Assembly (NCBI GenBank): GCA_964356495.1
Contig: CAYHHR010000004.1
Span: forward strand, 153 to 43,678
Source of the DNA: an uncultured Gammaproteobacteria bacterium
GTDB taxonomy: Bacteria > Patescibacteriota > Patescibacteriia > Magasanikbacterales > GWA2-37-8
DNA: 43,526 bases
Direction: 5' to 3'
In this document: positions 14,133-17,927 of the stretch, one piece after another
Position numbering within the stretch: position 1 is the first letter of the stretch
How the letters are laid out: each line of letters starts with the position of its first letter
Program-made: the position numbers and the translations under genes
The notes under the pieces: generated by a model
The model's input: the letters and a program-made list of their open reading frames with translations, nothing else
Told to the model about the DNA's origin: nothing
The model's database searches: none

Positions 14133-15128
14133 ATGCGTTTTTACGGCTCGGGAAAAAAACATCGAGAACAAAAATCGGAAAGAAAAAACTGGCGTTTTTT
14201 GCGTAGAAAAAAACCCAGCCACACTCACTATCGTCAACACGAAGATACGGCGGCGTTAAGATTGTCCAATCCGTACAAAACGAAAAATAAAGGATCCCGA
14301 TTAAAAATCAGAGGAACGATTCTGCCGATATTTATTATTTCCTGGATCGGTCTGTTGCTTTACCTGCCGTATTTCAGAATAAATAAAATTAATTATTCCG
14401 GACTAAAGATCATCAGCCAATCCGAAATTGACAATATCGTCCGCGGTCGGATCACACCTCAAAATATTGCCTGGCCAATAAACAACTATTTCATTTTTAA
14501 CAAAAATTCGCTCACGCAATTATTAAGCGATAAATTTTCATTAAACTCCGTTACCGTAAACAAAGTTTTTCCCGACACTCTCGAAATACAGCTCCAAGAA
14601 AAGACCACTGCCGGGATATATGATAATGGCGAAGCGTATTATTTATTAGGCGGGGACGGCTCAAACATAAAATATCTTCGGAGCGTTAGTACGAGCGAAT
14701 TTATTTCTTTAGCTACCACGACCGTCTCATCAACCTCGAGCAGCACCTCATCATCAACGCCTGCCGCCATCCTCATACATTCGCCAAATTTTCGGGAAAT
14801 ACAAAGGGAGTTCGGCGATTATCCCATCATACATGATCAGAGATCAATAAAAACCAACGAAAAAGACCATTTGCTGGACTCTAAGACAATGCAGGAAATA
14901 ATCGCGTTATATAACGCGCTCCAGCATATCAAGGCGCTCAAAGCCTCGTATTTCCTCATCGACGGAGGAACGGGCATCACCGCCATCACAAACAGGCCGT
15001 TCAAGGTGATATTCCAGCTAAACGGCAACGCTGAGGATGAAATCTCAAAGCTGCAAATTTTTCTCAATAATAACAATCCGTCAGAATATATTGATCTTCG
15101 ATTTGGCGACAGGATTTATTGGAAGTAG
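14133..15128 (+). CDS. FtsQ/DivIB-like POTRA-domain membrane protein
   Basis: Basic N-terminus, single TM, VNKVFPDTLEIQLQE, C-terminal YIDLRFGDRIYWK. Confidence 0.7.
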   Translation: MRFYGSGKKHREQKSERKNWRFLRRKKPSHTHYRQHEDTAALRLSNPYKTKNKGSRLKIRGTILPIFIISWIGLLLYLPYFRINKINYSGLKIISQSEIDNIVRGRITPQNIAWPINNYFIFNKNSLTQLLSDKFSLNSVTVNKVFPDTLEIQLQEKTTAGIYDNGEAYYLLGGDGSNIKYLRSVSTSEFISLATTTVSSTSSSTSSSTPAAILIHSPNFREIQREFGDYPIIHDQRSIKTNEKDHLLDSKTMQEIIALYNALQHIKALKASYFLIDGGTGITAITNRPFKVIFQLNGNAEDEISKLQIFLNNNNPSEYIDLRFGDRIYWK

Positions 15129-15155
15129 GGGGTATTGTGAGGGAAAGATATCCAC

Positions 15156-15184
15156 TTGCATAGTTATACATAACTGAGTATAAT
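15156..15184 (+). promoter_or_regulatory. Sigma70-type promoter of the HNH-recombinase cassette
   Basis: TTGCAT-17 nt-TATAAT. Confidence 0.7.
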
Positions 15185-15202
15185 ATCTCTTACACTCAGT
15201 TA
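15171..15202. other. Candidate tyrosine-recombinase (dif-like) core site
   Basis: TAACTGAGTATAA-TATCTC-TTACACTCAGTTA: 13-bp inverted arms (12/13) around a 6-bp asymmetric spacer. Confidence 0.65.
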
Positions 15203-15216
15203 ATTATCAATAACAT

Positions 15217-15720
15217 ATGCCATTTCCCCACCATAAGATGCTAGATATAGCAAAAAAACTCAACTCAGACTTCAACAAGATTATCAGCGACTTATACCTA
15301 GGAAGTAATTTTTCAGGCCAAGAGATTTCCGATGAACTATTTATTAAAACGGGAATATTTATAACCGCACGATCAATTCAAAGACAACTTAGAAAACTTG
15401 GCATTATCCGAACTTTTAGTGAAGCGTTTAATATTTCAATAAAAAAAGGTCGAAAATCATACGCTCACCTTAGACGTACTATCAAGTCCAAGGCTATGCG
15501 TAAAGGGATATATCCTAAACTAAGATACGAGATTTTTAGCCGTGATAAATTTAAATGTGTATTATGTGGCAACACAGCTGCCGATGACCACCTAGAAGTC
15601 GACCATATTAAGCCCGTTGTCTATGGCGGTACAAATGAACATAGTAATTTGCGAACGCTGTGTGCGGAATGTAACAAAGGAAAAATGCTAGTTGAGGAAC
15701 GAAAATTATTAAAAATATGA
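15217..15720 (+). CDS. HNH endonuclease with putative N-terminal HTH
   Basis: RYEIFSRDKFKCVLCG...LEVDHIKP...GGTNEHSNLRTLCAECNKGK. Confidence 0.9.
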   Translation: MPFPHHKMLDIAKKLNSDFNKIISDLYLGSNFSGQEISDELFIKTGIFITARSIQRQLRKLGIIRTFSEAFNISIKKGRKSYAHLRRTIKSKAMRKGIYPKLRYEIFSRDKFKCVLCGNTAADDHLEVDHIKPVVYGGTNEHSNLRTLCAECNKGKMLVEERKLLKI

Positions 15721-16661
15721 AACTTGGACTCCCCTATTTTGACGATTTTATACTTAATCTAAGGGCCAATAATTTTTCTGATGAGACTGCGTATAATTAC
15801 GAGCGCGATCTTCAAACTTTTGAAAATTTTCTAATTCACGACATAAAAAAAAACTTTTACGAAATTGATAAAACCGATTTACTCAGATACAAAGCATACC
15901 TGTCATCTGTTGATAGAAAAACAGCCAAATCAGCCAAATCCGAAAAAAAACTAAGCAGCTATTCTACGAATCGTATGCTTTCTACGTTGCGCTCCTATCT
16001 AAAATTTATGGAGGATATGGATCATACGCCGCCAATTTCTTCTACAGCAGTTAAGCTAGTCAAAAACATAAAGAAACATGGTCAGGTGCCTGAATTTGAG
16101 GTAATAATAAATGTTATTGAGGCGCCGATGAAATTTGAGGACAATATTAAAATCGCTCTACGTAATCGCGCGATGCTTGAAACCTTGTTTGCAACCGGAA
16201 TGCGCATTTCCGAGCTGCTATCATTAAAGGTAGTACAAATCGACAAAACGGGACGAATTTATGTGTTGGGTAAGGGAAAAAAACAACGATTCGTATATTT
16301 AACTCCTCGAGCGCTCACCCACCTAAAAAATTATCTTGCAAAACGTGCGAGCACATCCGAAATGCTATTTGTTCCCTATAGCGGGCTAAATAATCAAGAA
16401 AAAAATAAAAAATTATCGGCCAACTATTTACAATACAAAATAAAACAATACCGGGAGTTGCTTGGTATAATCACACCTATTAGCGCCCACACTCTACGTC
16501 ACGGATTTGCAACTTATCTAGCTGAGAATGGAGCAAACCCGGCTGCCATTCAGGTATTGCTCGGGCATGAATCACTAGATACTACAACCAGATATGTTCA
16601 TGCGTCAGATAGGTATGCAGAAAAAACCCACCATGATTTTCATCCACTATTCGACGAATAA
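15717..16661 (+). CDS. XerC/XerD-like tyrosine recombinase
   Basis: TGMRISEL, GKGKKQR, HTLRHGFAT, LLGHESLDTTTRY (full R-K-H-R-H-Y set); ATGA overlap with the HNH gene. Confidence 0.93.
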   Translation: MKLGLPYFDDFILNLRANNFSDETAYNYERDLQTFENFLIHDIKKNFYEIDKTDLLRYKAYLSSVDRKTAKSAKSEKKLSSYSTNRMLSTLRSYLKFMEDMDHTPPISSTAVKLVKNIKKHGQVPEFEVIINVIEAPMKFEDNIKIALRNRAMLETLFATGMRISELLSLKVVQIDKTGRIYVLGKGKKQRFVYLTPRALTHLKNYLAKRASTSEMLFVPYSGLNNQEKNKKLSANYLQYKIKQYRELLGIITPISAHTLRHGFATYLAENGANPAAIQVLLGHESLDTTTRYVHASDRYAEKTHHDFHPLFDE

Positions 16662-16694
16662 CTACGAGGTAACGTTATTTGAGCCTAGTTTAAT

Positions 16695-17927
16695 CTACGG
16701 CGCCATGTACGGCATCGGGTTGACCGGGATGCCATTTTGACGCACCTCAAAGTGCAAATGCGGACCAGTCACAAACGGCCCGGCGCCGACCGTCCCGGGC
16801 GTACCACCGGAATAACCGATGATATCGCCGCGATTTACGAATTGATCCTCGGTCACATTTATCCCGCTCAAATGCCCGTAAACGCTCGAGATATTTCCGG
16901 TATGAACAATTAGAATATAACTGTAACACGACGCGACACCGCAACGCCTGGCGCGCGCTATATAACCGGAAGCGGCCGCTTTGATTGGCGTGCCATAACT
17001 GGCCCGAATATCAATCCCGCTGTGCTCAAACACCCGCTTGAACGGATAACCTTCATCATGAAATACGGCGTTGATAACGTGGCTTTGCGCCGGCCAACTC
17101 ATGATTACTGACCCGGACGCGACGATCTTTTGTTCCCTCTCTAATTTTTTTTGCAGCTGCTGTTCAAAGGTACGCTGTTCGGTTTCGATTACCCGGTACT
17201 GTTCTCTTAAACTTGCCAATAATGTTTTAAATCTGGCCTCAGACGATTTTGTTTGGATCAGCAGGGTCTCCTTGGCCGTTTCTTGGCTCACCAATACGCC
17301 TTTTTTGCCCTCCAGTTCATTTTGCAAATTCTGAAAAACCAATTGCTTGGTATGAACTTGCTTCTGGCGTTCGGCGAGATCCTGCATCGCGAGGCGCAGC
17401 GTCTTCACCGAACGTCCGAGATCCGCGTTGATGTTTTCAATCGAACGCAAATCATTATAAAAATCGCTAAAATTATTATAGGTCAGCATTATCTCCAAAT
17501 AATTTTTTTGCTCTCCGGAATGAACGCTTTGAATTATTTTCGCGATCAGTTTCTTCTGTTTGCCAATAATTTTCTGTTTATCTCCAATCGAAATATTGAG
17601 GGCGTCAATTTCGAGTTGATTTTCTTTGATTTTTTCCCTCGTCAATTCGATGTCCGTCCCAATTTGAGAGACGCGATTGCCGATGATGTCAAGCTGATTT
17701 TTCAGCGACACCGCCTGGGTTTCCTTCTCACTGATGGTTTTTTTGTAATTATTGATCGTGTTCTCAAGTTCCTTGATTTTATCCTTTCTTTTGGAAATTT
17801 CCTGATTCAATACCTGAATTTCACCGCTTGACCCGCCAACATTCACCGCAAAAGCAAAAAAAGGCCGGCTCAAAAAGATGCCCATTCCCGTAAAAATAAC
17901 CAAATAAAAAAAATGCTTTACTTTCAT
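16695..17927 (-). CDS. Coiled-coil M23 peptidase (EnvC/CwlO-like)
   Basis: Signal peptide, long coiled coil, HSGID, YGHL, TGPHLHFEVR. Confidence 0.92.
   Translation of the reverse strand: MKVKHFFYLVIFTGMGIFLSRPFFAFAVNVGGSSGEIQVLNQEISKRKDKIKELENTINNYKKTISEKETQAVSLKNQLDIIGNRVSQIGTDIELTREKIKENQLEIDALNISIGDKQKIIGKQKKLIAKIIQSVHSGEQKNYLEIMLTYNNFSDFYNDLRSIENINADLGRSVKTLRLAMQDLAERQKQVHTKQLVFQNLQNELEGKKGVLVSQETAKETLLIQTKSSEARFKTLLASLREQYRVIETEQRTFEQQLQKKLEREQKIVASGSVIMSWPAQSHVINAVFHDEGYPFKRVFEHSGIDIRASYGTPIKAAASGYIARARRCGVASCYSYILIVHTGNISSVYGHLSGINVTEDQFVNRGDIIGYSGGTPGTVGAGPFVTGPHLHFEVRQNGIPVNPMPYMAP

Follow-up and report, generated by a model that had tools for sequence, protein, structure and literature searches.

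A probable dif/Xer chromosome dimer resolution module with an optional HNH endonuclease gene, apparently exchanged in place in a Magasanikbacteria genome

The window analyzed here is a 43,526-nucleotide stretch of DNA (contig C4 of genome G000, an assembly of ~850 kb in 44 contigs that is 96% complete) from Candidatus Magasanikbacteria, a lineage of the Candidate Phyla Radiation (CPR)/Patescibacteria. Between an ftsQ-like gene and an M23 peptidase gene, the window carries a near-palindromic site that resembles dif, followed by a gene for an HNH endonuclease and a gene for a tyrosine recombinase (xer). Sequence comparisons make it probable that this cassette is a chromosome dimer resolution module at the terminus, consisting of a dif site, a sole Xer recombinase, and an optional HNH insertion, and that the unit was swapped in horizontally. 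The features of the locus are as follows.

15156-15184, + strand: sigma-70-like promoter TTGCAT-17-TATAAT, with the -35 hexamer at 15156-15161 and the -10 hexamer, which falls within the site's left arm, at 15179-15184
15171-15202, + strand: 32-bp palindrome TAACTGAGTATAA-TATCTC-TTACACTCAGTTA, in which a 6-bp spacer separates 13-nt arms that are complementary at 12 of 13 positions
15173-15200, + strand: 28-bp dif-type core, made up of arm ACTGAGTATAA (15173-15183), spacer TATCTC (15184-15189), and arm TTACACTCAGT (15190-15200)
15217-15720, + strand: gene for a 167-aa HNH endonuclease, the first in its operon, with a helix-turn-helix (HTH)-like N terminus and a C-terminal Cys4 HNH domain
15717-16661, + strand: xer, encoding a 314-aa XerC/XerD/XerA-like tyrosine recombinase, its start overlapping the HNH stop (ATGA)
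15134-16699, + strand: apparently swapped module (dif-like site, HNH gene, and xer), which lacks nucleotide homology to the congener G002 and lies between the ftsQ-like and M23 peptidase genes
14133-15128, + strand: ftsQ-like gene, the conserved left neighbor (Pfam POTRA_1, 3.7e-05)
16695-17927, - strand: M23 peptidase gene, the right neighbor, convergent with xer (Pfam Peptidase_M23, 1.7e-25)

The initial annotation had described 13-bp inverted arms matching at 12 of 13 positions around a 6-bp spacer, a TTGCAT-17-TATAAT promoter overlapping them, and an HNH gene coupled through ATGA to an intact tyrosine recombinase gene. The repeat and the promoter can be read directly in the sequence at the positions listed above, and open reading frames (ORFs) and Pfam matches agree on the two genes and their overlap. 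The cassette had also been judged AT-rich by eye, which its composition bears out: G+C content is 0.370 in the module, 0.456 over the window, and 0.459 over the genome, and the module lies 6 to 9 points below both its flanks and the genome.

The G000 recombinase was used as a query against 41 related genomes (G-numbers), and a scan of GTDB species genomes yielded 18 further loci (L-numbers), 16 of which were new (L125 is G020, and L131 is G007). Close orthologs of the window's Xer were designated class A and homologs with only ~28 to 37% identity class B. The class-A set comprises 26 loci, 10 from the relatives and 16 unique GTDB loci. In eight other genera of the family, class-A Xer shares 75 to 82% identity with the window's; in another family the figure is 60%. 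All 10 class-A xer orthologs among the 41 relatives (60 to 82% identical) have the palindrome upstream, always after the ftsQ-like gene; 14 of the 16 further GTDB loci also have it, for a total of 24 of 26. Searching for the 32-mer throughout the genome and upstream of recombinase orthologs, a check that the initial annotation had proposed, thus gave a positive answer: in G000 the 32-mer and its core are unique (one match with ≤3 mismatches). When the relatives were scanned with 24 nt of the class-A core, allowing ≤2 mismatches, exactly one copy was found in each of the 10 class-A genomes, as expected of a site present once per chromosome, and none in the other 31. Metagenome loci were retrieved by exact matches to the 24-nt core (80 loci, 77 of them with ≥150 nt downstream), and an xer-like or HNH gene is adjacent to the site in 74 of the 77. 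The site ends 29 to 54 bp before xer in five relatives' loci that lack an insert and 267 to 542 bp before it in loci with one; the 514 bp in the window are due to the HNH gene. These distances run from the end of the site to the start of the blast match, and other markers give different values. A contig piece from sequencing run X3 that matches only window positions 15172-15203 carries an identical 32-mer in another context, immediately followed by an ATG-started ORF without HNH; it was attributed to another organism in the same groundwater sample.

In an alignment of 23 sites, positions 5 to 14 do not vary, nor does most of the right arm. Changes in the arms are symmetric (C/T at position 4 goes with G/A, and T/G at the outermost position with A/C), the A/C mismatch between the arms is kept in 21 to 23 of the 23 sites, and four spacer positions are nearly invariant. 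The 28-bp core has the 11-6-11 layout of dif, with two more symmetric bases on each side. It agrees with published dif sites at 12 to 16 of 28 positions, reaching 16 for Escherichia coli and Bacillus subtilis, and with the P. abyssi dif, in the form given in PMC2958812, at 15 of 28. The locus thus offers what is expected of a dif-type site, namely two inverted arms of ~11 bp, a center of 6 to 8 bp, and resemblance to dif. The two class-A loci without the palindrome, L133 and L137, have ACTGCGTATAA-TGCNCC-TTATGTGAAGT (N = T or A) instead, ~60 nt before xer. At 19 to 21 of 28 positions, these sites agree with dif of E. coli and of F. alni (sequences from PMC3025954); E. coli dif alone gives 19 to 20, and the range over published dif sites is 17 to 21. 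L133 and L137 are both Magasanikbacteria loci, their Xer is 63% identical to that of the window, and their sites are asymmetric and near-canonical, while the site of L136 has a form intermediate between theirs and the palindrome. Viewed side by side, these sites look like a series leading from a canonical to a palindromic dif.

The position of the site relative to GC skew, another check proposed by the initial annotation, likewise points to the terminus. In the closed genome of G021 (963,177 bp), the cumulative GC-skew maximum lies at 572,057 and the site at 572,579, a distance of 522 bp and roughly opposite dnaA (105.5 kb). Simple arithmetic puts the chance of a random position falling so near the maximum at ~0.1%. 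Skew in this genome is positive from ~180 to 560 kb and negative thereafter. Six further relatives (G014, G007, G019, G030, G023, and G020) show at contig level positive skew upstream and negative skew downstream of the site, with local cumulative maxima 460 to 1,591 bp away; G005 and G013 were not scored, the site being too near a contig end. Class-B sites sit at the same skew switch in G003, G010, and G024 and at a weaker one in G008 and G018, and the distance to the local maximum is ~9 bp in G024 and 49 to 72 bp in G003. Gene orientation in the window changes right after xer as well: serS, alr, and the ftsQ-like POTRA gene are on the + strand, and the M23 peptidase gene, gltX, and further genes are on the - strand. 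The skew-based estimate of the G021 origin is 181 kb versus 105.5 kb for dnaA, a mismatch ascribed to a noisy stretch from 100 to 180 kb. Part of it, ~146 to 170 kb of G021:C1, is G+C rich (0.63 at 150 to 170 kb versus ~0.44 elsewhere), disturbs the skew near the origin, adjoins two integrase-like genes (146.6 and 157.8 kb), and probably represents foreign DNA or an integrated element. The same chromosome carries extra exact left half-sites, TTGAGTATAAT, at 104981, 580042, and 648884, one of them ~560 bp before dnaA; these may be chance promoters, as the half-site contains TATAAT.

The site also overlaps the predicted promoter of its operon. The G000 hexamers, TTGCAT-17-TATAAT, agree with the consensus at 9 of 12 positions, and 14 of 23 relatives' loci have a stronger TTGACN-17(18)-TATAAT. 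The overlap reported by the initial annotation holds for G000, where the -10 hexamer lies within the site, while those 14 relatives have it at the site's left edge. Either way, the -10 or the start region is covered by the site, and bound Xer would therefore be expected to repress the operon. This raises the question of whether the palindrome is an operator only, of Xer or another regulator, with the true dif elsewhere. Besides the overlap in G000 and the 14 relatives, such a role could appeal to the autoregulation through the site that PMC1914069, in its treatment of difSL/xerS, proposes. An operator need not sit at the GC-skew switch, yet the palindrome does in the closed G021 and six relatives; its architecture is that of dif, and its close variants come near to the canonical dif. 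Furthermore, no other candidate for dif was found in G000, where a scan for the core with ≤3 mismatches returned scattered weak matches and no class-B site was present with ≤5 mismatches allowed. We therefore consider a pure operator very unlikely. A plain operator bound by the HNH protein, raised by the initial annotation as a possible refutation, can be set aside as the main role of the site: an HNH match accompanies only 8 of the 26 class-A loci, and 16 of the 24 loci that have the palindrome lack any HNH similarity by tblastn.

With TGTGGATAA taken as the consensus, 13 of 23 class-A loci (8 perfect) have a DnaA-box-like 9-mer shortly before the -35 hexamer, at a constant spacing; one further class-A locus has it in the other orientation, and ~0.06 are expected per such window in G021. 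It lies 39 to 42 nt upstream of the site in L004, L120 to L124, L130, L135, and others. G000 has only a copy with 2 mismatches, in the opposite orientation (ATATCCACT at 15148-15156). The 9-mer might link xer expression to DnaA.

The recombinase matches Pfam Phage_integrase (7.4e-37) and SAM_1. Xer recombinases act through a catalytic set of R, K, H-x-x-R, H/W, and Y. In an alignment to E. coli XerD (1a0p, the closest solved structure, 8e-26), the columns of the ATGxR, GKGxK, HxLRH, and LLGH...Y motifs are conserved, and judged by these columns the full set is present. Scores against the NCBIfam models for XerC (TIGR02224, 194 bits; cutoff, 335), XerD (TIGR02225, 182 bits; cutoff, 330), XerA (NF040815, 172.3 bits; cutoff, 220), and XerS (NF003462, 84.6 bits; cutoff, 267) all fall below the cutoffs. 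PF00589 has a single match in G000, and likewise in G019; the extra integrase-like genes of other relatives are not common to them, and those of G021 lie beside its G+C-rich island. A single 793-aa frame on G000:C26 encodes FtsK, its gamma domain included (PF01580, 192 bits; PF09397, 99 bits).

The preferred reading, in which this is a single-Xer dimer resolution locus, would work as follows. The 28-bp 11-6-11 core would act as dif, an Xer homodimer would occupy both of its nearly identical arms and synapse two sister copies, and strand exchange would take place across the 6-bp spacer once septal FtsK, through its gamma domain, brings the sites together. Binding of Xer probably also represses its own transcription, which we propose because the site overlaps the operon promoter. 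The HNH gene would be an optional insertion between the site with its promoter and xer that took over the first translation start and left xer coupled to it through ATGA. It would behave as a free-standing homing-type endonuclease gene, ancestral in this Xer clade and repeatedly lost or broken. Finally, the site-HNH-xer unit would have entered by horizontal transfer, replacing the dif/Xer specificity class of the congeners exactly in place.

The comparison with relatives bears on this last step. Class-B xer genes are preceded by a 10-6-10 site of their own, CGTCGTATAA-CATAGA-TTAAGCGACG, and the ftsQ-like gene that precedes class-A sites precedes these as well. A single copy of the class-B core, GTCGTATAACATAGATTAANNGAC, is present in each of 13 genomes of the family, among them the three G000 congeners; all 13 have class-B Xer and none has class A. 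Across the 41 genomes, classes A and B never occur together, for either genes or sites, and no class-B site is present in G000 or G021 with ≤5 mismatches allowed. The three congeners have the other site and Xer class at the same position between the ftsQ-like and M23 peptidase genes. By blastn, G000 and G002 are homologous as far as 15133, 5 nt beyond the ftsQ-like stop, and again from 16700, at the M23 stop, with 73% nucleotide identity from there on. The left boundary of the swap can be given only as after the ftsQ-like stop, the intergenic DNA before the site being unalignable even among congeners. The Xer of G000 is 28% identical to that of G002 and 82 to 84% identical to those of other genera, while the flanks are closest to G002: the C-terminal third of the FtsQ-like protein is 56% identical (34 to 41% in other loci), and that of the M23 peptidase is 83% identical (70 to 75% in other loci). 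Cotransfer of the flanking gene ends was considered and rejected, since the congener remains the nearest relative of the flanks up to the very edges of the module. Repeats, a second site, and coconverted flanks were sought at the swapped module and not found. The difference in G+C between xer and its flanks averages -0.009 over the 26 class-A loci, and discordance in G+C shows no clear link to the presence of the HNH gene across loci. The simplest reading of these alignments is that the whole site-HNH-xer unit horizontally replaced another dif/xer class in the G000 lineage, in place.

The initial annotation had offered a minimal mobile or defense module as an alternative. Part of this stands, in that the whole unit appears to have come from elsewhere; a defense role is unsupported. 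A stronger form of the idea would have the cassette serve a mobile element as its integration module, or be itself an element integrated at dif like the integrative mobile elements exploiting Xer (IMEX), with no housekeeping role. Its foreign composition, precise replacement, and patchy distribution fit such an element, and a site beside a recombinase gene recalls integration modules, a likeness noted for difSL-xerS in the discussion of that locus in PMC1914069. A mobile element would not be expected to keep a constant slot after the ftsQ-like gene at the terminus, to be without cargo, or to be represented by exactly one Xer class per genome in 41 genomes. Neither a second site nor a flanking direct repeat was found, as IMEX would require, the cassette encodes its own recombinase, and the 24-nt core had no match in the viral contigs searched, so no phage copy was seen. 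A mobile element in place of a housekeeping module is, in our judgment, highly improbable.

Small genes of unrelated kinds occupy site-xer gaps in class-B loci: an ORF of 194 aa on the reverse strand, one of 167 aa that is G+C rich, and one of 72 aa that is rich in Cys (G003:C1:146894-148432, G008:C2:83766-84612, and G015:C6 [L021:1016-1434]). From these inserts, the site-xer gap looks like an insertion hotspot.

The HNH domain of the window's protein covers residues 114 to 156 (Pfam HNH_5, 5.6e-12; HNH, 1.8e-11). Its family comprises 37 proteins of ~160 to 170 aa in which the N-terminal helical domain is conserved, and C114, C117, D129, H130, N144, C149, and C152 are invariant in 30 members. 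A structural model (predicted local distance difference test score, 86.8) predicts a helical domain at residues 1 to 65. Its nearest structural neighbors by VIA-align are the DNA-binding domain of GcrA (Z 6.7), the HTH of the ISCth4 transposase (Z 6.0; root mean square deviation, 1.2), and Tc3 (Z 5.5), and the C-terminal part is modeled as an HNH fold, best matched by the GVE2 HNH endonuclease (Z 8.0). Foldseek found no match to the model in the PDB at an E value of ≤0.001, and the weaker matches were all HNH domains. The HTH-like N terminus of the initial annotation is therefore likely but, at middling scores, not demonstrated.

Relatives that have the recombinase without the HNH gene, another point on which the initial annotation had asked for evidence, are common. 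The gene is intact in 5 of 26 class-A loci (G000, G019, G023, L122, and L128) and survives as a remnant in 3 others (L123, L124, and G014, the last with a TGA), while by tblastn 18 have neither form. It was found in none of the 20 class-B loci searched, and 7 of the 77 metagenome loci contain it, 9 others having another insert. A search of the whole genomes of the 41 relatives returned three full-length matches and one remnant, all between site and xer, and in a sample of 401 genomes of the class, G000 alone gave a full-length family match. HNH-bearing loci are scattered over the Xer tree, which is a quick tree whose weakly supported forks were used solely for this statement. L122 (CAYHBZ010000001.1) and L128 (CAZBWU010000003.1) are titled “uncultured Gammaproteobacteria” yet carry a CPR-type site-HNH-xer locus, and these labels look wrong.

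Several loci without the gene retain traces of it. In L121, whose sister L128 has the HNH gene, the first six codons and the last ones survive as a mini-ORF, MPNLSKI*, together with the ATGA overlap with xer; G020 retains MPNFHI*; and in G007, L120, and G013 the HNH start is fused in frame to xer. Where the gene is intact, its overlap with xer is 4 nt in G019 and 8 nt in G023. Because starts and stops persist in these otherwise empty loci, the gene was probably present in the ancestor of the clade and deleted many times with different breakpoints. Such repeated decay is as expected of a selfish endonuclease gene, and the locus has what is looked for in homing endonuclease genes: an HNH motif with a putative DNA-binding domain (its HTH part at the middling Z of 5.5 to 6.7) and sporadic presence at a fixed position with decayed copies. 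That the insertion runs in the same direction as xer and is coupled to it in translation may be why it has been tolerated.

Alternatively, the HNH protein might be a working accessory of Xer/dif, through binding of its HTH domain at or near dif, terminus processing, guarding of dif from elements integrating at it, or regulation of the operon, a role compatible with the site being dif. The gene is cotranscribed and coupled with xer in all three junctions read, its catalytic residues are invariant across the 30 members, and full-length members occur only at this position in the whole genomes of the 41 relatives and the 401-genome sample. Six CPR dif/xer loci, described below, moreover have a nuclease-like partner in the form of a GRADLG...EV.T extension on a recombinase-like protein. 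Against this stands its absence from 18 of 26 class-A, 70 of 77 metagenome, and 20 of 20 class-B loci, and repeated loss with different breakpoints is unlike a needed partner. An accessory function seems to us unlikely, if the least so of the alternatives weighed here. A more specific proposal is that the HNH protein cuts a resident incompatible allele (class B or HNH-less class A) in cells that have acquired foreign DNA and so forces, through repair, joint replacement of site, nuclease, and recombinase. We find this doubtful; were it true, an essential chromosome maintenance system would spread among CPR lineages like a homing cassette, its nuclease decaying once the module is fixed.

Several observations weigh against the reading of the locus as a single-Xer dimer resolution module with a homing-type insertion. 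The palindrome is the sole 13-6-13 inverted repeat with ≤1 mismatch in the window, and at least one such repeat arose in 14 of 200 (7%) windows simulated with a first-order Markov model. Taken alone it is weak evidence, only marginally beyond chance, and it is accepted as real because it is conserved in related genomes. An inverted repeat could also form an RNA or DNA hairpin, for instance one that ends transcription of the ftsQ-like gene or that acts as a leader structure. The predicted folding energy of -10.8 kcal/mol (z-score, -4.6) agrees with that, and the symmetric changes in the arms would suit a hairpin as well as a dimeric protein. However, no U-run follows the repeat, a hairpin does not favor four near-invariant loop positions and a conserved A/C mismatch in the arms, and the sites of L133 and L137 are, by eye, too asymmetric for good pairing. 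A hairpin is in our view scarcely credible as the explanation.

Points against the dimer resolution module also come from its genomic setting. GC skew on the G000 contig steps from about -0.015 upstream of the site to -0.091 downstream without a sign change, and since this 43.5-kb contig shows only such a step, the terminus position in G000 is taken from synteny (alr-ftsQ-site-xer). A scan of G021 for strand-biased 7- and 8-mers revealed no polar word that stood out like an FtsK orienting polar sequence; the best, GGGGATT (106 versus 20), was among many moderately skewed A/T-rich words. Because G000 is 96% complete in 44 contigs, a second recombinase gene is possibly unassembled.

Site and recombinase are not always matched either. 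In six metagenome loci, the same 24-nt core stands beside a recombinase-like protein that is 23 to 28% identical and apparently inactive, so that, as far as these contigs go, the pairing of site class and Xer class is not universal. The loci are L161, L197, L200, L207, L221, and L228 (e.g., L197:240-1592, - strand), and the protein has 450 to 460 aa, a Pfam integrase score of 28 to 41 bits, catalytic motif strings not recognizable by eye, and a C-terminal extension whose GRADLG...EV.T motif is reminiscent of PD-(D/E)xK nucleases. The site is inverted relative to xer in L132 and in 12 metagenome loci (L166, L167, L170, L181, L199, L214, L215, L220, L231, L236, L238, and L239); on this evidence its orientation is not fixed across lineages.

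For the homing part, contigs of four DNA runs from two studies contained no joint that skips the HNH gene, all being of the HNH-bearing form; they show presence only, because contigs drop rare variants. No repeats or second site flank the HNH gene, and the footprints in loci without it indicate one old insertion followed by losses and not repeated homing. On balance, the comparative evidence supports what the initial annotation had given as the first of its two options, a single-Xer dimer resolution locus invaded by a free-standing HNH endonuclease gene.

The CPR/Patescibacteria make up a large share of bacterial diversity. A terminus marker good to ~0.5 to 1.6 kb would help to orient and check their assemblies. 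Two distinct site/recombinase classes in the same slot, even within one genus, amount to a natural specificity experiment: class-A and class-B sites have the inner GTATAA...TTA in common and differ in the outer arms and spacer. An essential-type site/enzyme pair that appears to have been exchanged as a single unit would also show how replacement can occur.

Among known systems, XerS/difSL of streptococci and lactococci offers a close parallel in organization. As presented in PMC1914069 and PMC5357621, it has a single recombinase, a site just upstream of the gene as a terminus module, and FtsK. The window's locus has the same elements, including the site adjacent to and upstream of its one recombinase gene. 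It differs in that the recombinase scores 84.6 bits against the XerS cutoff of 267 and so is not an XerS equivalog, in that an HNH gene lies between site and recombinase gene, and in the site itself, which is near-palindromic and 11-6-11, while difSL has 31 bp with an 11-bp center according to the description in PMC5357621. In its account of the module, PMC1914069 proposed that acquisition of xerS/difSL replaced an older Xer system and that the arrangement might protect dif from insertions that sever xer from its promoter. To the latter the window offers a counterexample, in which an HNH gene apparently inserted and survived as the first, coupled gene of the operon.

Archaeal XerA/dif, as set out in PMC2958812, resembles the window's locus in its single XerC/D-like recombinase and near-palindromic 11-6-11 site, and XerA is among the best NCBIfam matches. 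At 172.3 bits, however, the window's Xer is below the XerA cutoff of 220 and not an XerA equivalog. The dif of Thermococcales is not beside xerA in the same account, while the window's site is linked to its gene, and archaea are without FtsK according to PMC5357621, while G000 has one with a gamma domain. Classical XerC/XerD-dif, the system of E. coli and most bacteria, following what PMC3025954 and PMC5357621 relate of it, provides the best sequence relatives and shares the 11-6-11 layout, the inner ATAA/TTA edges, the terminus position, and the FtsK gamma domain. It differs in having two recombinases: the window's genome, 96% complete, has one PF00589 match and thus no XerC/XerD pair, its Xer scores far under 335 and 330, the gene is linked to the site, and the arms are nearly identical instead of being specific to XerC and XerD. 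With XerH/difH of Helicobacter and Campylobacter, as outlined in PMC2731167, the window's locus has in common a single recombinase, a mostly site-linked module, and the presence of two dif/Xer systems in one taxon. XerH is a distant sequence relative (PDB 5jjv, 9.2e-14, weaker than XerD), and the arms and spacer of difH, in the version shown in PMC5357621, differ from those of the window. From its sequence, the window's enzyme is a divergent XerC/D-like recombinase acting alone, below the thresholds of both XerS and XerA.

The HNH gene has its own counterparts. Free-standing homing endonuclease genes of phages include the seg and mob genes of T4. Like these, it encodes a small HNH nuclease with a separate putative DNA-binding domain and has a fixed intergenic position, sporadic occurrence, and decayed copies. 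Unlike them, it lies on a bacterial chromosome inside an essential-type housekeeping module, as the first gene of the operon, and its history appears to be one ancient insertion with repeated loss. Full-text searches of the literature, taken at the level of listings and abstracts, returned no account of chromosome dimer resolution or dif-Xer in CPR and nothing on endonuclease genes within dif/xer modules. What the window adds to the known systems is the pairing of site class with recombinase class, a swap in place within one genus, and an HNH gene with deletion footprints.

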